Positions 1,544 to 17,473 of a stretch of 30,318 nt of DNA are shown in pieces. The notes below the pieces were generated by a model that did no database searches, was not told where the DNA came from, and was given only the letters and a program-made list of their open reading frames with translations. The stretch is taken from the IMG/VR virus record IMGVR_UViG_3300038477_000009, positions 1-30,318 of that record; one strand, 5' to 3'. How positions within the stretch are numbered: position 1 is the stretch's first letter; every line of letters starts with the position of its first letter. Source of the stretch: a virus (taxonomy: Duplodnaviria > Caudoviricetes). The translations under genes were made by a program, and so were the position numbers.

Positions 1544-4500
1544 CTATAACGCTGCGCGCTTCGCCCGCACGTCCACGAGCGCCTGGCGCGCCGCCTCCAG
1601 CTTGCTCTCTCGCGTCGCCTTGCCCGCTTCCGAAAGCTCGTCGTCGGCCGTCTCCCCGAGCTTCCGCATTGTCGCCACCAGCTTGCTCTCCTGCGCGTTC
1701 AGCTTCGCGACGTTCAGCGCCCGCGTGAAGGCGTCCGCCGGCTCCGGTACCGCGGGCTTGCCGAACATCCCCTCCGGAGCGCCATCGGCCGCCGCGTCTT
1801 GCGCGTAGATCTCCGCCGCGTCCTTCAATTCCGGCAGCGGTGCCGATTGCAGCGTCTTCGCCATCTCGATCACCCTCGGCGAATACCCCGGCCTGCCGAA
1901 GATATTACCCGTCTTGACGAAATGGGCCAGCGTGTTCTTGTTCGCCGAGGCCTCGCGCAGCAGCTCGAGCGCGCCCTGCACCGTCGGCGTCAACGTCCAC
2001 TTCGGGTCCGCATCCAGATCGGTCAACGGCCCCGCGATCCGCTCGATCCGCGTGCGCACCGGCAGAACCGTCGCCGCCATCTGCTCCGTATCGGCGTAAA
2101 ATCGCCCCGTCAAGGCCTGCGAGATCCGCGCCTTCCCCGCCTCTGTCAGAGTGTTCCCCGCCTTCAGCGCCGCCACTTCCTGTTGATTCACTACGCCGTC
2201 GCGGATCATGCTGTTCAGCACATCCACGCCACCGGGCCCACCCAGTACTTGCGGCAACGTCCCCTGTGGCCCCAGCGCGTTCATCCGCCGCCCGATATCG
2301 TCCCGCGTTGCCTGCGATACCCGCCGCGCGTCCGCCATCGCGTTCTCCGCCGGCGTCAGATCCGCGGTACCGCTCGCGTTGAAATCGGTAATCGCCCTCT
2401 GCCGCGCCTCCGGGGTCGCGGTCTCCGAGTCCGCCACTTCGCGCCCTAAGACCGGCTGCCGCATGGCCGCGATCTCCGCCGGGTCTTGGCCGTAGAGTCC
2501 GGCATGTTGGATCAGTAGCTCCCGGTAGGCTTGCGCGCCCTCTGGGTTGTAGGCGTACATCCGCTGCAACATCATGCCGCGGCCGTTGCCGCCGTGCACC
2601 TGCCCTTCACTGTCCCAGGCCGGCGGTCCGCTCCCCATGTCAGGGCCATTGTTGACGAAGTACCGAGGGTCGAATGTCGCCGGGTCGGACCCGAACATCA
2701 CCTTCGCCTGGCTCTCCGGGATGGTGTAGTCACGGTCGTTCAGTCCCTTGAAACCTTCGTTCCTGGCGAAGCTGAGACCGTTGTGAGAGGTGGTGATGCT
2801 GTCGAGTTCCCTTACGGCATATTTGGCTTGGTAAGGGGCGCGACGGGAGCCTGGGATTGGGATGGTTGTCGCTGACGTTCGGCTTGGAGTTCCCGCGACC
2901 GGTCCAGGCTGGCCTTGAACCGCCGGTGCTCCTCGATCTCCTCCAGCGTGCTGCACGGGAAGACTATCGTCGTTTGGCTGCGGTCCACTGTCGCCATGCG
3001 CTGCTCCTATCGGTGTCTCAACAGTACTCGCTTCCGGCCCCTGATTCAATACCTCCGCCGCCCCGCCCGGCTTAGGGTTTAACCCCGCAGCGCTACCACC
3101 TCCACCACTCCCCGCCCGAGGCGTAGACGGTCCTCCACCAGGCGGGATCGGCCTCACGTCATCCGGCCCCGTGATCCGCAATATCTGCGACAGGCGCAAC
3201 GCCGCCGCTCCAGGTGCCTCCGGCGCGAGCCCGCCGGTCAGCAGTCGCACGCCGCGCGGGGAATACAACAACTTTGCTATTGCGCCCCAACCCAACTGGT
3301 AGCCGGCAGCGAGCACGGCGCCACCCGCCACCGCCAAGGGGCTATGCAGGTACAGGCCACCGACGCCCGTTAACCCTCCGATCGCATTGCCCGCCTGGTT
3401 GACCAGTGCCGTGCCCGATGGGTTGGGGTTGTCAGTCGCCATCTTGGCACCCAGGAAGAAGTTATCGAGTCCGGAGCGAAGCCCAGGATTCGGGTACATG
3501 AGTGCCTTGGTCTGGTCCCCTAGTCTCTCCCAATCTCTGGCCATTCCAATCGTTCTCGAGAACCCGCCCTCTGCCGTCCCCTTGTCGAATACCTGTTGCA
3601 GAAACGCGCGGCCAATCTGCGGCATCACGCCCGGCGCTTCCGCATCGATCTTCCGGATCAGGGCGATGCCTGTGTCGTACTGCAGGGTCAGCTTGTTGAA
3701 ATTCTTGACAGGCTCTTCCTTCAACTGGTCCGCTAGGTCCGCCAGTTCCATCTTCGTCGCGTGGGCCGCACGGCCATCCTGTAAGGAACGGAGCGCCTGC
3801 GGGTCCGCTTTCGCGACTGCGGCATCAATCCCCTCCTGAAGGGGCTGGGTCACCCCCGCGGCCATTCCCTGAGATGTATTTCGCAGGTCCGTATTGTCCA
3901 CGCGGGCCATCGTTTTCAGTCCCGACAGCCCTTGCTCGGCATCCTGTGCCGAAATGAAGTCGGGCCCGTTGACGATGCTCTTGGCCGCCTGGTATCCGGA
4001 GCTGGCGTCTCGAACTACGCTCGTGCCCCACGAGTCCATCGACTGCACGAACGGCGCGAGCTGCTGCTTGATCCCACGTACGTCGACCGGCGCCTGGACC
4101 TTCGCCATCACCGGCGCCGCTTCCGTCTGCCCTGTGTCCTTGCCAGTGGCGTCGTAGATCGGCCGCTGCACCGTCTTCACCGGGACCTCGATCGCGTTGG
4201 CCGGATCGTTCACCGTCGCCCATGTATCCCCGTACGCCTCATCCTCATGCAGCTTCAGGTTGCCAATTTGCCGGTTGAGCGAAGCGGGCGCAGCCGCGCC
4301 GGCCGACTCTGGTGTCGCCGGGTTTGGATGCGCCTGTTCAGTCAGCTCGCCGGCGACTCGCGTCAGCCCCTGCTCGGTGGCAAGCGCAGCCTTCCCTGCC
4401 ACGCCCGCCCCCAGTGGCGTTTGTGCCGCGAGCGCCTGGAAGCCCTTGAGGAACTTATTGCCGGTGACCGTTCCCGCGTTCAGCGGCACGTCGTGGGCCC

Positions 4501-5251
4501 GCAGGTAATCCACCGCGTCCTGCTGCACCGGATTTAGCCTGCTCTTGAATTGGAGCGGCCCGACCGCTGGCGCCGCGTCGGCCGCTGCCACCGGCGAGGC
4601 CTCGGCCGCCGGCGCCGCCGGCACGCCGGGCCCCGCCGCCGCATCCCCCACCCCGGCGCTCGCATCCACGCCCTGCACTCCAGCCCGGATCTCGCCCACA
4701 GCCCTTGCCGCCGGCACCGCCAATGCCAGCGCCGCTTGCGGGATCGCTTCGCCAACCGCGCCGGTCGGGTCGGGATGCTGCCCCTGCGTTACCACATTGC
4801 CGAATTTGTCGTAGGCCGGCGGCGCGCCCGCCAGCCGCGTCGCCAAATGCGCCGCCATCGGTCCCACCATCGGTGTCACGGCCGCCAGCGAGTGCCCCAA
4901 CGCCTCGCTATACTGCCCGTTCTGCGCCGCCTGGTAGGCCTGCTGCGCCTCAGCCGCATGAGATTTCAGCAGGTCTAGCGCCATCTGGACTACCTTCGGC
5001 GTGTCCACATGCTGGCCGGTCACCGCCTGGTACGTCTCTTTCACCCCTTCCGCCATCAGCGCCGGCGGCGACGTCTCCCCCAGCACTTTCAGAATGCCCA
5101 GGCCACTCGATAGCACCGCGTGTCCCAGGTTGCCCCACGTCTGCGGTGCCGCCGGCGCATAGGCGGCCGACTGCTTCGGCATCGCCTGCACCTGCGATGG
5201 GTCGACGTGGATCGCCTGCACTTGCGAAGGATCTACTTGAAGCGTTCCCAT
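1544..5251 (-). CDS. Large ejection/internal virion protein (P22 gp16 position) with a C-terminal DdrB-like ParB-superfamily domain
   Basis: 1235 aa; third of three Ala/Gly/Gln-rich genes after the GNAT gene; hydrophobic Gly-rich segment mid-protein. The C-terminal part has YAVRELDSITTSH...NDRDY...FDP...GPP...GGNGR, recalled as the DdrB-ParB motif set. Confidence 0.82.
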   Translation of the reverse strand: MGTLQVDPSQVQAIHVDPSQVQAMPKQSAAYAPAAPQTWGNLGHAVLSSGLGILKVLGETSPPALMAEGVKETYQAVTGQHVDTPKVVQMALDLLKSHAAEAQQAYQAAQNGQYSEALGHSLAAVTPMVGPMAAHLATRLAGAPPAYDKFGNVVTQGQHPDPTGAVGEAIPQAALALAVPAARAVGEIRAGVQGVDASAGVGDAAAGPGVPAAPAAEASPVAAADAAPAVGPLQFKSRLNPVQQDAVDYLRAHDVPLNAGTVTGNKFLKGFQALAAQTPLGAGVAGKAALATEQGLTRVAGELTEQAHPNPATPESAGAAAPASLNRQIGNLKLHEDEAYGDTWATVNDPANAIEVPVKTVQRPIYDATGKDTGQTEAAPVMAKVQAPVDVRGIKQQLAPFVQSMDSWGTSVVRDASSGYQAAKSIVNGPDFISAQDAEQGLSGLKTMARVDNTDLRNTSQGMAAGVTQPLQEGIDAAVAKADPQALRSLQDGRAAHATKMELADLADQLKEEPVKNFNKLTLQYDTGIALIRKIDAEAPGVMPQIGRAFLQQVFDKGTAEGGFSRTIGMARDWERLGDQTKALMYPNPGLRSGLDNFFLGAKMATDNPNPSGTALVNQAGNAIGGLTGVGGLYLHSPLAVAGGAVLAAGYQLGWGAIAKLLYSPRGVRLLTGGLAPEAPGAAALRLSQILRITGPDDVRPIPPGGGPSTPRAGSGGGGSAAGLNPKPGGAAEVLNQGPEASTVETPIGAAHGDSGPQPNDDSLPVQHAGGDRGAPAVQGQPGPVAGTPSRTSATTIPIPGSRRAPYQAKYAVRELDSITTSHNGLSFARNEGFKGLNDRDYTIPESQAKVMFGSDPATFDPRYFVNNGPDMGSGPPAWDSEGQVHGGNGRGMMLQRMYAYNPEGAQAYRELLIQHAGLYGQDPAEIAAMRQPVLGREVADSETATPEARQRAITDFNASGTADLTPAENAMADARRVSQATRDDIGRRMNALGPQGTLPQVLGGPGGVDVLNSMIRDGVVNQQEVAALKAGNTLTEAGKARISQALTGRFYADTEQMAATVLPVRTRIERIAGPLTDLDADPKWTLTPTVQGALELLREASANKNTLAHFVKTGNIFGRPGYSPRVIEMAKTLQSAPLPELKDAAEIYAQDAAADGAPEGMFGKPAVPEPADAFTRALNVAKLNAQESKLVATMRKLGETADDELSEAGKATRESKLEAARQALVDVRAKRAAL
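2812..2997 (-). CDS. Overprinted 61-aa ORF in an alternative frame inside the ejection gene (candidate immunity/antitoxin)
   Basis: ATG 2997 has AGGAG (3008-3004) 6 nt upstream and a sigma70-like promoter further upstream. It lies in the low-complexity linker of the host gene. Confidence 0.6.
   Translation of the reverse strand: MATVDRSQTTIVFPCSTLEEIEEHRRFKASLDRSRELQAERQRQPSQSQAPVAPLTKPNMP
3004..3049 (-). promoter_or_regulatory. Internal sigma70-type promoter and RBS for the overprinted ORF
   Basis: Minus strand: TTGAAT (3049-3044), 17 nt, TACTGT (3026-3021), then AGGAG (3008-3004), 6 nt, ATG. Confidence 0.6.
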
Positions 5252-8144: not shown

Positions 8145-8615
8145 CTATTCCCCTGGCTTGCTCCGGCCCATCAACATCTGGTCCCAGAGCTTGCCGTGCT
8201 TCAAAAACGACTTGGAATTCATCCCGTAGGGCTCCAAATTCATGCCCTGCGCGTCGAGCCCGTAGCGCACCGCCGCCCAGTTCGAGGCCGGCACACTCGC
8301 AATCAACCGCCGGCACGGCGTGTTCTCCCACAGCCACTCGACCAGCTCGCGTCCAATCCGCCGCGCCTTCTCCGGGTGCAGCCCGCGGTACAGCGCCACG
8401 TGCGCCGCCCAGCAGATCTGGTTCTCCGGGAACAGGCAGAAGAGCCCTAGCAGATCGAACCCGTCGTAGACGCGCACGTATCGGATGTCCGAATGTGTGT
8501 TCACCTGGAACTCTTCGCGCGCCGGCGCGAAGTCGTCCGTCATGTAATCGTAGATCTCTGGATCGGTCAGAACCTGCCGCACCAGCCCGTAGCGCGTCGT
8601 CGGATCGAACGTCAT
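8145..8615 (-). CDS. GNAT-fold protein, P22 gp14/DUF2824-like (156 aa)
   Basis: Real start is ATG 8615, overlapping the upstream TGA (ATGA). Sequence MTFDPTTRYGLVRQVLTDPEIY...HVAL...WLWENTPCRRLIASVPASNWAA...SFLKHGKLWDQMLMG; conserved position before the ejection genes. Confidence 0.8.
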   Translation of the reverse strand: MTFDPTTRYGLVRQVLTDPEIYDYMTDDFAPAREEFQVNTHSDIRYVRVYDGFDLLGLFCLFPENQICWAAHVALYRGLHPEKARRIGRELVEWLWENTPCRRLIASVPASNWAAVRYGLDAQGMNLEPYGMNSKSFLKHGKLWDQMLMGRSKPGE

Positions 8616-11600
8616 TCCACCACCCCAAAACTCGCTTCCACCCGCGCCGGCACTGGCCAGTCCAACAGCACCAGATGATCCACCGCCCACACATTCACCG
8701 TCGAAACTCCCGCTTCGATCGCCGCCAGGTATTCCGCCGGCCACGGGCACCCGCCGTTGAAAATCGGCACCAGGTAAGCCACCGCCGCCGCCGGCCAGGT
8801 GCACGGCGCCCCGGTCGGGAACCCGATCGCCGTCCGCGCGTTGGTCAGGTTGCGATACCTCGATCCCCAGCTCAGGCCTTCCATCTTCAGCCGGTTCAAT
8901 CCGCTCCCGCTCTGCGCTCTGTAAGCCACCGGGAAGTTCACCGCCGCATTCAGCCGGCCGCCTTGCGGATATGGCAGATCGTCCGTGTAGTAGCACGCGG
9001 CCGCGTTCACGTCCTGCGGATAGAGCAACTCGAATTGCGCCCCGCTCTGCGCTGCCAATACCGCCGACGTGATGGTCGCGATATGCGTCGCGATTGCCCC
9101 CGCCAGCCACCACGCATCCGCGCCCCCGTTCACCGTCGGATCGTCGTCCTGAGTCCAAAAGCTCGCCAATGCCCGGCCCAATCCCGTCAGCGCCGAGGCC
9201 TGCGCCCACGCGTCGTAGTACGCCATCCCGCCGCCGCTCGCCGTCCCCGTCCCCGCCTCGTACGTCCCGTTCCCGCTCGATCCCGTCAGAGTGTAATGCG
9301 TCGTGTCCGTCACCACGATGGGCCACGTCCCATTCGCCGCCGTGTTCCCTTTGATGCCGGCCTGGATCGCCGTCTGGCCCGTCGCGAATCCGTGCGGCGC
9401 CACAGTCCCGATTGAAATCGGCGATGTGAAACTCGCGTATCCCACCGCCTGGCTCATCCGCTCCGAATAGAACCACCAGCCGACCTCGCCGAATTGCAGC
9501 CAGGGAACGAGGCCCGCCGCCGCCAGGATGTTCGCCGCCTGCACATAGCACTTCGCCAGGTACGCCGTCACCGTCCCCGGATTGAAGGTGCACTGGCTCG
9601 TCTGCAGGTCGATCAGCACCCCATCGCCGGCCGCCGGCAGATACCCGCCCGAATTCGCGATCTCGCTCCCCAGCGTGTAGTGGTTCGCGTCCGTCACCGC
9701 CACCGCCCATTCGCCGCTCGCCGTCGCACTGGCGAAATGCGCCGTGTTCCCCGTGATGTACCCGTGCCCGGTCTGCTGATAGACGCCCGCCGCGACCGCT
9801 TCCACCACTCCCGCGCCCCAGCTTCCGAAGCCCGTGTCCGTCAGCACCGTCGTCCCATCCGCGAAGCGCTGCGCCCAGCCGCCCCCCGCCGTGTTCGCAT
9901 CCGGAGGCGCCAGCAGCTCCTGCGAGAAGGCCACCGTCATCGTCTGCCCGGCCGCCTTCACCAGCCCCGCGAAGTCCGCCAGGTAATCCCGAAATGCCCG
10001 ATTCAATGGCGAGGCCTGCGACGCGTCCACCGCCCACGTCCCCTCATTGCCGATCCCCACGTCGCCCGTCATCGCAATCGTTCCGGTCGATCCCACCGCG
10101 GCCGTTACCGTCATCGCGAAGCCGTTGATCGGGGTCAGCGAAGTCACGGTGAATTGCCCCGCCGTCGAGCCGCTCGCCGCGCACACGCCCACGAATGTTG
10201 CGTTGATCGCATCCACCAACCGTTGCGCCAGCGTCGCCAGTGTGTCCGCCGGATAGGCCGCCGCCCCCAGGTTCGTCGCCCCAATCGTGAAGAAGTACGC
10301 GTCCCCGTCGCCCTTGCCGGTCCCCGTCCCGATTGGCCCCGCGATCGTTACCGTCGCCCGGTGAAAATCGCCGCCATTTCTTACCCGCTTCAAACCGAAG
10401 AAAACGCCGGAGTAGAAATCGATGTCTCCCTGGAACCCAAGCTGTCCGAGTATCCAGAGCAGCCGCGCCGGCGGGATTTTATAGGATTGATCCGTGTCGT
10501 AATCGCACGCACCGTTTAAATGCGGATGCGTCGCACCGGGCGCCACCGGATCGCTCGGTACCGCCGCTTGCAGATAGTCGAATAGGCACGTTCCGCTGAC
10601 CACTGTCAGCGTCACCACATGCACCCCGGCTGGTACATTGGTGGCAATAGACCTGCGCCCGGCGAACGCAGCCACCTCCAGCGCATAGGTGTTCACTGTG
10701 GCCGCCGCGGCGCCGTCCACCGAGACGCTGAACTCGCCGCCCGCCCTCCCCAGCGCCGTCCCCAGGTATACGTGGTGCGTCGACTGGCAGGAGTATGCCA
10801 CCGTGACCACGTCGCCCGCATTGCTCGATTGCCGCGCGAAGCCCTGGAAGTAGAACCCGGCCGCCTCCGTCCAGCCCGCCCCCACGTAGCTTGCCCAGGC
10901 GTCCCGGCTCCCGATCGTCACACTTCCCGGCCCGGCGATCTTCAGCTGCGTCACTCCCGCCGTATCCGCCACCGTCCAGTTCGAGAACACCGCCGAAAAC
11001 TCCGTCGGCGCGAATGCGACCAGCGAAGGGGTCGCCGCGCCCGAGTCGTAAGTCAGCCACGGCGCCAATGTCAGCCATATCTGCCGGCAACTCGCCAGGC
11101 CCAGCCCCGAGAAGTCCAGGTGGTAATGCAGCGAGGTCGGATCCGCCCCGCCCGTCAGCTTCGCCGTTTGTCCGCTCGCCGTCGACCCGCTCCCCGTCGG
11201 ATAGAGTTGCGCCCCCGCGCTCGCTCCGCTCGGCCAGTTGTATAGCGCCAGCAGTTCAATCCCGTTTCCATCGCGCCCCGGCGCCGTCGAAACCGCGAAC
11301 GTACTCCCGCTCTGCACCGCCGAAAGCAAACCGCTGGCATTGATCTGCGTAACCAACTGGCCCGCCACCGCCCCTCGCGACCCGCTCTCAAGCAGTACGC
11401 CGCCTTGCGCCGGCCCATCCGAGGCCACTACCGCCTCCGAGTACACCGTCAACAGTTTCGGCGTGAGCACCAAGCCGCTTCCACCCGAGGTCGCCGCCGT
11501 CGCATTCGGGTCCGATGCATTGATCGACGCCGCCAGGGCCGTGGTGATTGCCAGGTTGTTGTCGCCTGCCCTTTGCAGGTACGTGTAGACCGCCGCGCCT

Positions 11601-13009
11601 ATCTCCACGTAGTGCGTGTTCCCGGCTCCCAGTGCGATCGAAAACGCCAAAGTGCAGGTCTCTTGCGTAATCGATACCACGCCCGGCCCGTTGCCGTCCG
11701 AAGCCGTGCAGTCCGCGCCAACCAATCCCGGTTGCGCCGATAGCGTCACCACGTTGCCGGCCGCCGCGGCCACCACGTAGGGGTTCCCGCTGCCCGCGTT
11801 TACCAGCGCCGCTAACGCCGTCGCGATGTCTCCCGAGCCGTCCGTCGCGAGCTGGTAATGCACGTAGTTGTAAGCGCCGGCCACATTGATGAAGTGCGCG
11901 TATCCGCCCAGCGCGACTCCGCTCGCGTTCCCGTCCGAGGCGCCGCATGTCGTCCCCGTCCCCACGATCGCCGTCAGCGTCACGTTGTTCGCGCTCGCCG
12001 AAGCTACTGCGTTCGGGTCCCCGCTCGCCGCGTTAATCAGCGCCGCCAGCGCCGTCGCGATGTCTCCCGAGCCGTCCGTTGCGAGCTGCACATGGGTGTA
12101 AGTGTTCGTGCCGATCGTGATGTAGTGGCTGTACCCGGTCCCATAGGAGTTGAAGAAGCCGAACGTCACCGCCGGCACCACGCCATACGAGTTATAGAAA
12201 TCGAAGCTCGCCGTCCCGACGCTGCTGTTCCCTACTGTCCCAGTCTGCGCTCCCGGTTCCGTCGTCGTGCATGGTGCGTCGTCGCCGCCCGTGCCCTTCG
12301 ATGTCAGGATCACAACCCCCGCCCCGCCGCTCGAAGCCACCGCGTACGGGTCCGCTCCCGTATTGACGGCCGCTATCATCCCGGCCGCCACTTCGGCGAA
12401 TGTGTCCCCCACCAGTTGCGTGTAGTTGTAAGTGTGCTGGCCTCCCACCGGTCCGATGGTCAAGCTGTGCGTCGACTCCTGAATATCGTTGAAGTAGAAA
12501 TCGAGCGTCGCGGCCCCGGTCCCCGACGGGTTGTAGATGTAATCGAAGATCGTGTTACCGAGGTAGACCAGTTGCACCCGGTCGTACGTCGCCGGCGTGC
12601 CGGCCACCGTGAAGCTCGCCGTCGCCGCCGCCCCGCCCGTCGTCGACGTCGGCGCCGGCAGCGCCACCGTCCCGAACGTCTCCCCGCTCGTGATGTAACT
12701 CAGCGCGCCCCATGCCACGCTCTGGTATTTCGAGCTGGCCGGATTCATCACTCCGCTAATCGCCAGGTCGAAGTCGAGAGTCACATAGGCCAGTGAGAAG
12801 TCCGGCAGGTAGCGGCTCGTGAACAGGTGCCCATACAGGTCGTCCGCGTTCCACAGATACAGCACCGCGAAGTCCGCCTGGTCGCTCCAGCAGCCCGATA
12901 CCGTGAATCCCGTCGCCGTCGCATGGTTGATCGAAGCCGCCGCCCCGCGCCGGTCGAATCCATTCAGGCTGATGGCATACCGCGGATCGAGCTTCGCAAT
13001 TGCCGTCAT
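8612..13009 (-). CDS. 1465-aa mosaic tail/receptor-binding protein: NCTSP-like N-terminus, sheath-like repeats, CBM-like jelly roll, TIM-barrel-like C-terminus with beta-barrel inserts
   Basis: Long ORF coupled at both ends (ATGA). N-terminal DPRY...DFAVLYLWNADDLYGH...DF and C-terminal LQFGEVGWW...YYDA resemble 'non-contractile tail sheath' N-terminal and TIM-barrel families (recalled). Repeated IATALAALIN motifs. Confidence 0.75.
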   Translation of the reverse strand: MTAIAKLDPRYAISLNGFDRRGAAASINHATATGFTVSGCWSDQADFAVLYLWNADDLYGHLFTSRYLPDFSLAYVTLDFDLAISGVMNPASSKYQSVAWGALSYITSGETFGTVALPAPTSTTGGAAATASFTVAGTPATYDRVQLVYLGNTIFDYIYNPSGTGAATLDFYFNDIQESTHSLTIGPVGGQHTYNYTQLVGDTFAEVAAGMIAAVNTGADPYAVASSGGAGVVILTSKGTGGDDAPCTTTEPGAQTGTVGNSSVGTASFDFYNSYGVVPAVTFGFFNSYGTGYSHYITIGTNTYTHVQLATDGSGDIATALAALINAASGDPNAVASASANNVTLTAIVGTGTTCGASDGNASGVALGGYAHFINVAGAYNYVHYQLATDGSGDIATALAALVNAGSGNPYVVAAAAGNVVTLSAQPGLVGADCTASDGNGPGVVSITQETCTLAFSIALGAGNTHYVEIGAAVYTYLQRAGDNNLAITTALAASINASDPNATAATSGGSGLVLTPKLLTVYSEAVVASDGPAQGGVLLESGSRGAVAGQLVTQINASGLLSAVQSGSTFAVSTAPGRDGNGIELLALYNWPSGASAGAQLYPTGSGSTASGQTAKLTGGADPTSLHYHLDFSGLGLASCRQIWLTLAPWLTYDSGAATPSLVAFAPTEFSAVFSNWTVADTAGVTQLKIAGPGSVTIGSRDAWASYVGAGWTEAAGFYFQGFARQSSNAGDVVTVAYSCQSTHHVYLGTALGRAGGEFSVSVDGAAAATVNTYALEVAAFAGRRSIATNVPAGVHVVTLTVVSGTCLFDYLQAAVPSDPVAPGATHPHLNGACDYDTDQSYKIPPARLLWILGQLGFQGDIDFYSGVFFGLKRVRNGGDFHRATVTIAGPIGTGTGKGDGDAYFFTIGATNLGAAAYPADTLATLAQRLVDAINATFVGVCAASGSTAGQFTVTSLTPINGFAMTVTAAVGSTGTIAMTGDVGIGNEGTWAVDASQASPLNRAFRDYLADFAGLVKAAGQTMTVAFSQELLAPPDANTAGGGWAQRFADGTTVLTDTGFGSWGAGVVEAVAAGVYQQTGHGYITGNTAHFASATASGEWAVAVTDANHYTLGSEIANSGGYLPAAGDGVLIDLQTSQCTFNPGTVTAYLAKCYVQAANILAAAGLVPWLQFGEVGWWFYSERMSQAVGYASFTSPISIGTVAPHGFATGQTAIQAGIKGNTAANGTWPIVVTDTTHYTLTGSSGNGTYEAGTGTASGGGMAYYDAWAQASALTGLGRALASFWTQDDDPTVNGGADAWWLAGAIATHIATITSAVLAAQSGAQFELLYPQDVNAAACYYTDDLPYPQGGRLNAAVNFPVAYRAQSGSGLNRLKMEGLSWGSRYRNLTNARTAIGFPTGAPCTWPAAAVAYLVPIFNGGCPWPAEYLAAIEAGVSTVNVWAVDHLVLLDWPVPARVEASFGVVE
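11816..12088. repeat. Near-identical 39-bp direct repeat (11816-11854 and 12050-12088) encoding QLATDGSGDIATA
   Basis: cgccgtcgcgatgtctcccgagccgtccgt(c/t)gcgagctg occurs twice, 234 nt apart. Confidence 0.85.
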
Positions 13010-15317: not shown

Positions 15318-16067
15318 CTAAAATTCTCTCGTCCGGTAATTGAAGGTCGGTCTTGCCGACCCATTTGTCGGCATCCCTGAATCGACCGTCCGCAGATGCG
15401 GCGCCGTCGAGTTCAGGCCTTGCACGCCCGCGCGTGCCTTCCGCGCCATCTCGACCACCGCTGCCGGTACCGCTGCGTTCCACTGCGGCCCCACCAGCTC
15501 CGCGAACGTGTAGAGGAAGGCCGCATAGTAGCCCGGTGGCAGCGCAATCGCTTCCCCCAGCCCCGTAAATTGCGCCACCTGCAGCCAGGTGAAGAGCTGT
15601 AGCAGGTAGCCTATGGTCGGATAACCCCAGAAGTACAGATTCGCGTTTGGAAACGCATAATCGCAGTACATCTTGGTTGGGATCGTCACTGGCATCTGTT
15701 CCAGGCCGAGCGCCGCCCATCCCTGCGCATCCAGAATCTCCACCGGAGTGAACACTCCCGGCGTCTGATCGGTCAGGCAGATGTTCGCGTTCTCGATCCG
15801 CGTCGGCCGCACACTCCCCGGCCAGTCCGTCGAACCCGGCCCAAGCTGATAAATCGGCGGCTGGTTGGCGTCCGCCGGCGCTTTCCCGCTGAAGACATAG
15901 AAGTCGATCTTCGTCGAGTAGACGAACAATCGCCGCGTTTTCCAGTAATCCACCAGCGCGTTCAGCACCCCCAGACCGTCGGTCAGCTCGGAAGGGCACA
16001 GTCCGCCGCCGGCGCGCAACTTCCCCAGCGCTTTCGCCGCCGAGTTGATCAGGTCCGCTACCGTCAC
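15318..16067 (-). CDS. Head-tail adaptor (P22 gp4-like), paralog 3 (249 aa)
   Basis: GTG 16067 overlaps the upstream TGA. Sequence MTVADLINSAAKALG...DGLGVLNALVDYW...RPTRI...LPPGY. Confidence 0.82.
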   Translation of the reverse strand: MTVADLINSAAKALGKLRAGGGLCPSELTDGLGVLNALVDYWKTRRLFVYSTKIDFYVFSGKAPADANQPPIYQLGPGSTDWPGSVRPTRIENANICLTDQTPGVFTPVEILDAQGWAALGLEQMPVTIPTKMYCDYAFPNANLYFWGYPTIGYLLQLFTWLQVAQFTGLGEAIALPPGYYAAFLYTFAELVGPQWNAAVPAAVVEMARKARAGVQGLNSTAPHLRTVDSGMPTNGSARPTFNYRTREF

Positions 16068-16756
16068 TGTCTCCCTCCTCCCGGTTCCGGCGGTTGCGCC
16101 GGCGCGCCCGGCATCGGTATGCCCAATACTTCGGAGTTCAAGGTTTGAATCGTCAGCATCGCCGCTTGCGCCATCTGCGGCAGCCCCTCCGGAATCGGCC
16201 GGCCGAAGGGAATGCACAGCTCCATCGCGAACGCCTTCACCAGGGCCGTCTCATAGCCCGGCGGCAAAACCACCGGATCCGTCAGATTCACGAAGTCGGT
16301 GATCGCTTCATAGGTCCACAGGGCGCATGTCCCGCTGGCCGGCATCGGAGTCACGTATACGTTCCCGCTCGGATAGCCGCCGTCGTACAGTAGGTCGCGG
16401 ATGAACAACCCCGTGCGCGACTTGTCCCGAATTGATACCCACTCCTCCGCCGTCACGACGTGCACCGCGCTCTCAATGTTGTTCGCCGTGATCGAGGAGG
16501 CCGCCTTGATCTTGATCGGCCGCGTCACCGCGCTCCATGTCTTGCCTACTCCGTAGGTGTACGAGGCCGCCCCCGTCAATAAATACTGCTGATACTTGAC
16601 CCCGATCGGAGAGAGCTTCTGCGCGCTCCAACTATCCAGCAGCCGGTTCACCGAGCGCAGCGCGAACGTCTGGTCGTCGGTCGAAACCGTTTGACCAGGC
16701 CCGTACGCGTTGATGTAAAACAGCGAGTCGTTGATGATGTCGGAAACCAGGCTCAT
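16064..16756 (-). CDS. Head-tail adaptor (P22 gp4-like), paralog 2
   Basis: MSLVSDIINDSL...ALRSVNRLLDSW...RPIKI...LPPGYETALVKAFAMEL. Confidence 0.82.
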   Translation of the reverse strand: MSLVSDIINDSLFYINAYGPGQTVSTDDQTFALRSVNRLLDSWSAQKLSPIGVKYQQYLLTGAASYTYGVGKTWSAVTRPIKIKAASSITANNIESAVHVVTAEEWVSIRDKSRTGLFIRDLLYDGGYPSGNVYVTPMPASGTCALWTYEAITDFVNLTDPVVLPPGYETALVKAFAMELCIPFGRPIPEGLPQMAQAAMLTIQTLNSEVLGIPMPGAPAQPPEPGGGRQ

Positions 16757-16759
16757 CGC

Positions 16760-17473
16760 TTATCTCCCTGCCTGCATCGGCATGTACTGCTGTGGCGTCG
16801 GCGGCACGTAAGGCGGTTCGAAGGGATCGCCCAACGTCTGCCGATAGAGCTTCGCCAGGCCTGCCCGCGTCGATTGCGCCAGCGCCGCCGTCTCTTGCGT
16901 CAGCTTCGCTCCCGCGAACGCCGGCGCCAGTCGCACCGCCAGGTTCGATTTTAAAAACTCGATGTACCCCACCGGCAGCGTCAAAACGTCGGTCATCGCC
17001 GCGAAGTTCGCCAGCGGCTTCACGCTCCACAGCTCGAGCTGGCCGGCGGTAGGAGCCGGATTTAGATAGAGATTGGCCAGCGGCGTCGCGTAATCGCACG
17101 CCATCACATCCGCGAATAGGCCGATCAGCGTTCGGTCCAGCACCGCCTGCGCGTATTTCTCCGCTGGAAGGATCGCTACCGCCTGGGAAGCGCTGTTCGC
17201 CGCTATCACCGCCGCCGCGCGAATCCGCACCGGCCGCACCGTCGCGAGCGTCCCCGCCGGGCCTAGGGTGTATGTCGCTGCCCCGGTCAGCGCAAGGTAC
17301 TCATGCGTCAACTGGTAGACCATGTCTTCTTCCGCGCTCGCCATATCGAGCAGCGCGTTGATCGCGTCCAGCGCGTCCGCATATTCGCCCGTCGCCATCG
17401 TGCGGCCGGTCGCGGTCAGCCCCAGCGATTTGAACGCCGGATCGACGATCCCTTGCTGTAGCGTCATCGACAT
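16760..17473 (-). CDS. Head-tail adaptor (P22 gp4-like), paralog 1
   Basis: ...AFKSLG...EYADALDAINALLD...YTLGP...RPVRI...LPVGYIEFLKSNLAVRLAP. Confidence 0.82.
   Translation of the reverse strand: MSMTLQQGIVDPAFKSLGLTATGRTMATGEYADALDAINALLDMASAEEDMVYQLTHEYLALTGAATYTLGPAGTLATVRPVRIRAAAVIAANSASQAVAILPAEKYAQAVLDRTLIGLFADVMACDYATPLANLYLNPAPTAGQLELWSVKPLANFAAMTDVLTLPVGYIEFLKSNLAVRLAPAFAGAKLTQETAALAQSTRAGLAKLYRQTLGDPFEPPYVPPTPQQYMPMQAGR

Follow-up and report, generated by a model that had tools for sequence, protein, structure and literature searches.

The window, that is, the whole stretch of 30,318 nucleotides analysed here, is one phage-like contig within a 5.8-Mb genome bin. The genes on its minus strand run in the order tyrosine recombinase, small and large terminase, P22-like portal, scaffold, coat, head closure and a gene of the PHROG category 'DNA ejection', followed by genes of 613 and 1235 aa. 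The flanks of the contig contain no host genes, and one relative locus sits 394 kb inside a genome contig. Those close relatives that have named genome records belong to the Acidobacteriota, and the window DNA is present in peat metagenomes, so the bacterial host is likely a soil acidobacterium. Elsewhere in the window, positions 15318-17473 hold a tandem row of three PHROG 12985 paralogues, of which one weakly matches an SU10 adaptor, and a 630-aa frame at 8145-10037 overlaps the end of a 1465-aa gene (8612-13009) by approximately 1.4 kb. Only the last 150 aa of the 630-aa frame match a head-morphogenesis PHROG, and therefore its true start is probably near 8600.

The 1235-aa gene (1544..5251, minus strand) encodes an ejection-region polyvalent protein of a P22-like phage, composed of an N-terminal scaffold, a linker and a DdrB-ParB module. 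It is placed after the 'DNA ejection' gene and downstream of the portal, coat and head-closure genes, and these Pfam and PHROG neighbours give the DdrB-like ParB domain a late-gene, virion-associated setting. The sole Pfam match in the protein is ddrB-ParB at aa 804-938 (PF18763; 2438..2842, minus strand; E 1.8e-10, 41.4 bits against a cut-off of 27.6). The GxxR phosphate-binding motif of this domain reads GNGR, with the arginine at R891, and G-N-x-R is invariant in all 26 aligned ParB modules. In the AlphaFold2 model, where the module region has a mean pLDDT of 88.9, the ParB domain is accompanied by a helical domain (1751..2437, minus strand). The whole module aligns to the pNOB8-like ParB 5k5d over 214 residues (Z 7.3, rmsd 5.5), and the matches to the ParB/sulfiredoxin fold have modest Z values (pNOB8 ParB 7.3, PadC 7.0, KorB 6.6, sulfiredoxin 5.6); Foldseek returned no match to the module at E<=0.001. 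The model places the domain in the ParB/sulfiredoxin fold, with a conserved active-site arginine. For the DdrB-ParB domains of phage polyvalent proteins, Iyer et al. 2017 (PMC5512222, in its account of PF18763) proposed injection and a role as NTP-regulated nuclease or NTP sensor, and the domain studied here resembles those domains in scoring above the Pfam cut-off, in keeping the catalytic arginine and in lying among late virion genes. DdrB of phage P1 is reported in the virion head (PMC9024508), and by analogy the ParB module is likely packaged and injected with the phage DNA. Many homologues of the 1235-aa protein entirely lack the ParB module.

Within the linker, the same strand carries a second, shorter reading frame. 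A -35-like hexamer TTGAAT (3044..3049, minus strand, 4/6 consensus) is followed after 17 nt by a -10-like hexamer TACTGT (3021..3026, minus strand, 3/6 consensus), which together predict a transcription start near 3014. Then come a Shine-Dalgarno sequence AGGAG (3004..3008, minus strand) 6 nt 5' of the ATG at 2997, and an ORF of 61 aa in the +1 frame relative to the host gene (2812..2997, minus strand), which ends at a TAA at 2814-2812. The four signals and the ORF, in a frame different from that of the host gene, lie exactly where the first-pass annotation of this DNA had placed them. The same annotation had the ORF ending where the ParB domain begins; in fact it covers host residues 752-814 and overlaps the first 10-20 codons of the module (the Pfam match starts at aa 804 and the conserved strand at aa 795). 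The local shift in composition claimed at the same time is borne out: third-position GC over the ORF is 0.74 in the nested frame versus 0.48 in the host frame, and outside the linker the host-frame values are 0.68-0.95. Across the 14 minus-strand genes of the window only two out-of-frame AGGAG+ATG starts occur, and a promoter match is found only at the nested gene. The other start, at 3825 on the minus strand, opens 30 codons and has no promoter match. On a short public contig, gene calling has already picked up a 59-aa protein with 68% identity to the nested product. No second copy of the nested gene was found in its own genome, and Pfam, PHROG and the ESM Atlas hold no family for the small protein (best Atlas value 0.78, weak).

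The window promoter has 7/12 consensus matches and is not flagged by a promoter scan of the window, and the +1 frame is open for 48 codons at about 20% of positions in these host genes. The earlier statement that such signals are unlikely by chance therefore required homologues. Single-sequence locus searches with the C-terminal module gave no matches and alignment-based searches succeeded: 122 loci were fetched by host-homologue alignment, 8 from related genomes were added, and removal of duplicates left 36 host frames with and 63 without ParB. A close set of 27 was defined by a match that begins at the first ParB strand and includes the helical domain; 9 distant or truncated ParB loci were set aside. 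A +1 ORF of 50-81 codons, starting 86-173 nt before the module, is present in 24 of these 27 close homologues, the window included, although the loci are related to each other and such counts overstate independence. Loss of the frame in close homologues that keep ParB had been named beforehand as the finding that would speak against a gene; by that measure the 24 loci favour the gene and the 3 loci without the frame count against it.

The nested products share the core E-x-x-K-x-x-R-F-x-x-R-L-x-Q-x-R, which forms a single predicted helix (aa 18-43), and have net charges of +1 to +10. The C-terminal tail is an out-of-frame reading of the first ParB strands. The nested product is thus predicted to be a basic helix of no known family. 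In some family members (P0022, P0054, L035, L040, L006) the helix is duplicated or a W-T-x-E-Q-L repeat is present, and in P0019, probably a broken copy, the helix continues into a short ParB-like stretch. With a leave-one-out profile, from whose training the test sequence and its near relatives were withheld, the nested ORF ranks top among the out-of-frame segments of every one of the 24 host genes; the window copy is the weakest member (4.0 bits versus 1.3 for background). Another 15 close loci, identified from ParB only, served as a held-out set: 10 score at least 8 bits and rank first, 3 more score 5-7 bits with a visible motif, and 2 have none. The family is carried by 2 of 39 distant ParB loci and is absent from the other 37. 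Among 1.84 billion proteins it has 41 representatives (clusters at 50% identity); gene callers drop nested genes when the long frame is intact, and a conserved family of this size has therefore stayed unnamed.

The upstream signals are conserved as well. With a simple promoter score that requires A2 and T6 of the -10 box, 20 of the 24 nested starts reach the threshold of at least 7, compared with 8.4% of the 593 remaining +1 starts of these genes. Scores of at least 10 occur at four nested starts and at 0.0% of the background starts, and only 3 of the 593 combine the length, promoter and start criteria. Three loci (L023, L026, L032) have a perfect TTGACA at the -35 position. Two layouts are found. 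In the leadered layout a ribosome site is present and the -10 box lies 12-23 nt upstream. In the second, seen in 7 copies, the -10 box lies exactly 8 nt before the start codon, and 6 of these copies have no ribosome site; this spacing is the geometry of a leaderless message. A -10 match is absent in 4 copies. Judged from sequence, the nested gene carries a conserved sigma-70-like promoter in leadered and leaderless layouts.

Which of the two frames is under selection can be read from the codon positions. In a 20-codon ungapped block, nucleotide identity at nested positions 1, 2 and 3 is 0.507, 0.563 and 0.438, and the most conserved, position 2, is the wobble base of the host frame. In the ParB control the values are 0.705, 0.735 and 0.446, with the wobble base least conserved. 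The mean BLOSUM score in the block, which is anchored on a nested residue and somewhat favours the nested frame, is 1.58 for the nested frame and 0.52 for the host frame. Of the 43 single-base differences in five close pairs, some of which share members, 23 leave the encoded residue unchanged in the nested frame, compared with 7 in the host frame. These comparisons show purifying selection on the nested frame and not on the host linker. Since conservation of the nested frame exceeds that of the host frame, the linker is largely a by-product of the small gene. The nested gene is almost certainly real.

The search for RNA returned 22 runs for positions 1800-4200, of which 3 are metatranscriptomes from 3 studies, each with 7-11% of the words. 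The only part of the host gene covered by contigs from these RNA libraries, all of them from peat, is 2663..2987 (unstranded). Four contigs (2663-2813, 2792-2942, 2796-2987 and 2664-2857) represent the 3708-nt gene, and all four lie on the nested gene or just downstream of it; they are unstranded, have a depth of 3-4, and none reaches the predicted start. Random placement would make all three runs touch the ORF with a probability of about 0.003, computed post hoc. In a DNA run (X12, depth approximately 3), 27 of 30 bins have coverage; that the nested gene makes up two of the three bins without any is uninformative at such depth. The RNA is a weak hint that the nested stretch is transcribed while the rest of the host gene is not seen, and DNA carry-over into RNA libraries is possible. 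The earlier proposal of a separately expressible gene is supported by the conserved promoter and starts.

The reading that we favour, with a probability of roughly 0.47, is that this is a selected nested gene with promoter-like signals whose helical product binds and switches off the NTP-hydrolysing domain of the injected ParB module. Taking the gene as real, the odds of an inhibitor role are even. Host RNA polymerase would transcribe the nested gene independently of the late operon, both in the lysogen and as soon as the phage DNA has entered a cell. The injected ParB module would act first on host nucleotides or DNA; subsequently, the newly made helix, minutes after arrival of the cargo, would silence it. 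A lysogen that keeps making the helix would be shielded from the cargo of kin phages. We infer the toxicity of the ParB cargo, the helix-ParB binding and the timing. In its general form, more tentative still, the proposal is that in temperate phages the gene of a virion-injected enzyme conceals the antidote to that enzyme, the helix shutting off DdrB-ParB cargo and immunising lysogens against kin.

The association with the ParB module is close. The family profile has no match in the 63 ParB-less homologues or their flanks. Long N-terminal parts unlike the window scaffold are found in 12 of the 24 hosts, which indicates that the helix gene and the ParB module travel as a cassette, and the nested gene is kept across ParB modules that are only 38-54% identical. 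A reverse search from the small protein in 400 family genomes gave three new strong matches, all directly before ParB in the +1 frame, and collection scans gave seven distinct new loci, again all directly before ParB in the +1 frame (two of them possibly the same as genome matches). No copy away from a ParB start was found in any locus with DNA. Five weak genome matches (E 0.002-0.009) with no ParB nearby were dropped; three of the five were unrelated host-gene frames. Among the family representatives, 25 of 41 end in an out-of-frame reading of ParB strands, compared with 0.7 in shuffles, the profile itself including the tail and being biased towards such matches; a few, e.g. P0041, P0055 and P0056, have no such tail. 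The small gene is thus an adjacent, co-inherited partner within one clade of ParB modules. It does not follow the type of active site: the idea that it tracks GNGR rather than GNSR was rejected, with GNSR in 9 of 22 positive loci.

The overlap of the nested gene with the ParB coding start forces co-inheritance whatever its function, and the 'inseparable cassette' of the first-pass annotation is only partly upheld: the pair moves across scaffolds, on the one hand, and each member occurs without an intact other, on the other hand. L005/L063 and L019 have an intact GGNGR motif and no nested gene, which amounts to two independent losses on the tree, and the genome of L005 (G018, 97% complete) has no family match. 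In total, close loci with an intact motif but no nested gene number 3 of 27, plus 2 of 15 in the held-out set, and a late-expressed, packaged cargo may need no partner. Conversely, L142 (G790) keeps the promoter, ribosome site and ORF beside a ParB cut after about 24 residues, and in L140 (G816) the nested gene is intact beside a frameshifted ParB; either these are recent decay or the small gene brings a benefit independent of the phage's own ParB. In L132 the ParB start and the nested gene are both replaced by other DNA. The linkers of L006 (G052) and P0006 contain an inserted second segment with a ParB-like motif (G-N-N-R), which lies upstream of the nested gene or of the site where that gene would be.

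Such cases, with ParB persisting without the small gene and the small gene beside a broken ParB, fit an accessory gene, expressed early or in the lysogen, that occupies the linker as spare coding space and is carried along with ParB, its target being a host factor, a defence system or the entry of a superinfecting phage. Unrelated nested ORFs in other linkers of distant homologues point the same way, and a basic helix could bind nucleic acid or many acidic proteins. What such a gene leaves unexplained is the confinement of the family to ParB starts and its retention across divergent modules and unrelated scaffolds, with none in the ParB-less relatives. We regard this alternative as unlikely, and as the best of those that remain beside the inhibitor.

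That the small protein is a positive partner is a good deal less probable. It could be an activator or co-factor supplied by the lysogen, for instance one through which incoming kin ParB becomes an abortive signal, or it could assist folding or packaging as a chaperone, and either would give the same co-occurrence with ParB as the inhibitor. A packaging chaperone, on the other hand, needs no conserved sigma-70-like promoter of its own, the leaderless copies are unreadable from the late message via a ribosome site, and the modules without the small gene look intact.

An even lower probability is given to a regulatory role in cis, in which the internal transcript or its translation matters, through interference with the late message or a helix-ParB frameshift fusion, and the peptide matters little. 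The RNA contigs, which extend about 150 nt beyond the nested stop into ParB, would suit such a role; the amino-acid-level selection in the nested frame would not. Slippery heptamers occur in only 2 of the 24 genes and no slippery site is shared, so that a programmed frameshift into ParB was rejected. An internal host-frame start for ParB was rejected as well, with a ribosome site at such a start downstream of the promoter in none of the 24. The promoter would therefore yield the small protein only. Near 2663, where the RNA ends, neither an intrinsic terminator nor a stable RNA structure (z 0.63) was found. Finally, a chance open frame with coincidental signals in a GC-rich linker, which the imperfect, unflagged promoter, the frequent openness of +1 frames and the lack of a Pfam or PHROG family might suggest, is refuted by the excess of nested-frame over host-frame conservation and by the rarity of comparable background starts, and is highly improbable.

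Out-of-frame genes within a functionally linked partner on the same strand are known from lambda, where Rz1 lies in Rz. Spanins are membrane proteins of one lysis transcript, with the Rz1-type lipoprotein inside the gene of the membrane-anchored partner. The likeness to the present case is the same-strand, out-of-frame nesting in a partner gene; the difference is that the nested helix is predicted to be soluble and basic and has promoter-like signals of its own. A spanin identity was rejected: in 25 aligned rows there is no conserved cysteine or hydrophobic leader, and the window protein has no Pfam or PHROG match.

A functional parallel is the ToxB-iToxB pair of CDI systems, described as a ParB-fold ATPase toxin and a cognate immunity protein that inhibits ATP hydrolysis (10.64898/2026.05.05.722872). 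Going by that description, ToxB resembles the module in being a delivered effector with a ParB fold and a GxxR motif, and the small cognate inhibitor parallels the candidate helix. ToxB is, however, delivered by CdiA and its immunity gene is separate and downstream, whereas the candidate here is upstream, nested out of frame and phage-borne. In P1, ddrB is listed as non-essential, and its annotation is antirestriction rather than toxin (PMC10695390), which counts against a toxin/antidote reading. P1 also has a small annotated gene nested in its DdrB-ParB-carrying gene, iddB ('internal to ddrB', NC_005856; PMC10695390). It is antisense, encodes 132 aa and covers the last part of the ParB domain together with the sequence that follows; as the nested profile also has no match at the P1 locus, iddB was rejected as the same gene. 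The main text of PMC5512222 has no match for 'overlap' or 'linker', and its section 15 names no small partner gene for the domain. Alternate-frame insertion is described as an engineering method, OAFI (10.1101/2024.11.07.622342); OAFI is synthetic, whereas the nested gene is natural and conserved. In searches of the openly accessible literature, nested genes with promoters of their own were not found described for the linkers of ejection or polyvalent proteins. The present case contributes a specified cargo partner, promoter conservation in two layouts and a hint of expression.

Further nested frames occur in related genes. Some other candidate nested ORF is present in 9 of 39 loci that lack the family. 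A second, different +1 family is found in a distant subclade (L210, L212, L214, L231, L225), about 390 codons after the ParB start and just past the module, with the motif R-Q-x-M-x-x-Y-L-x-x-P-P, AGGAG in four of five members and a TAAACT or TACACT -10 box 20 nt upstream. In L231 and L225 it is followed by an HExxH domain, and its partner could therefore be either neighbour. The 2090-aa gene of L151 (G021:C27) has two further +1 candidates with a flip in codon bias, at host aa 839 and 1334: the first, of 61 aa, has GGAGG and lies after the ParB module, and the second, of 70 aa, has a leaderless-type promoter; neither is in the family by profile. Before distant ParB domains, L008 (G078) has in its linker an unrelated 88-aa +1 ORF with AGGAG (third-position GC 0.90 in its own frame, 0.56 in the host frame), and L217/L220 have a 102-aa pair of unrelated +1 ORFs with AGGAG. 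The same ejection scaffold or module also occurs with other cargo, namely a zeta toxin (L040), a PBECR1 nuclease (L015) and an M90 peptidase (L133), and by the same criteria no nested gene specific to any of these was found.

The nested gene gives the DdrB-ParB domain its first candidate partner and makes the role of that domain, a question ever since the domain was described, testable. The locus also shows that an apparent low-complexity linker in an ejection protein can arise as a by-product of another gene, promoter included, and that leadered and leaderless layouts have both evolved inside coding DNA. If the antidote reading is true and general, the 'disordered linkers' of polyvalent ejection proteins would be a catalogue of cognate inhibitors for their cargo domains.
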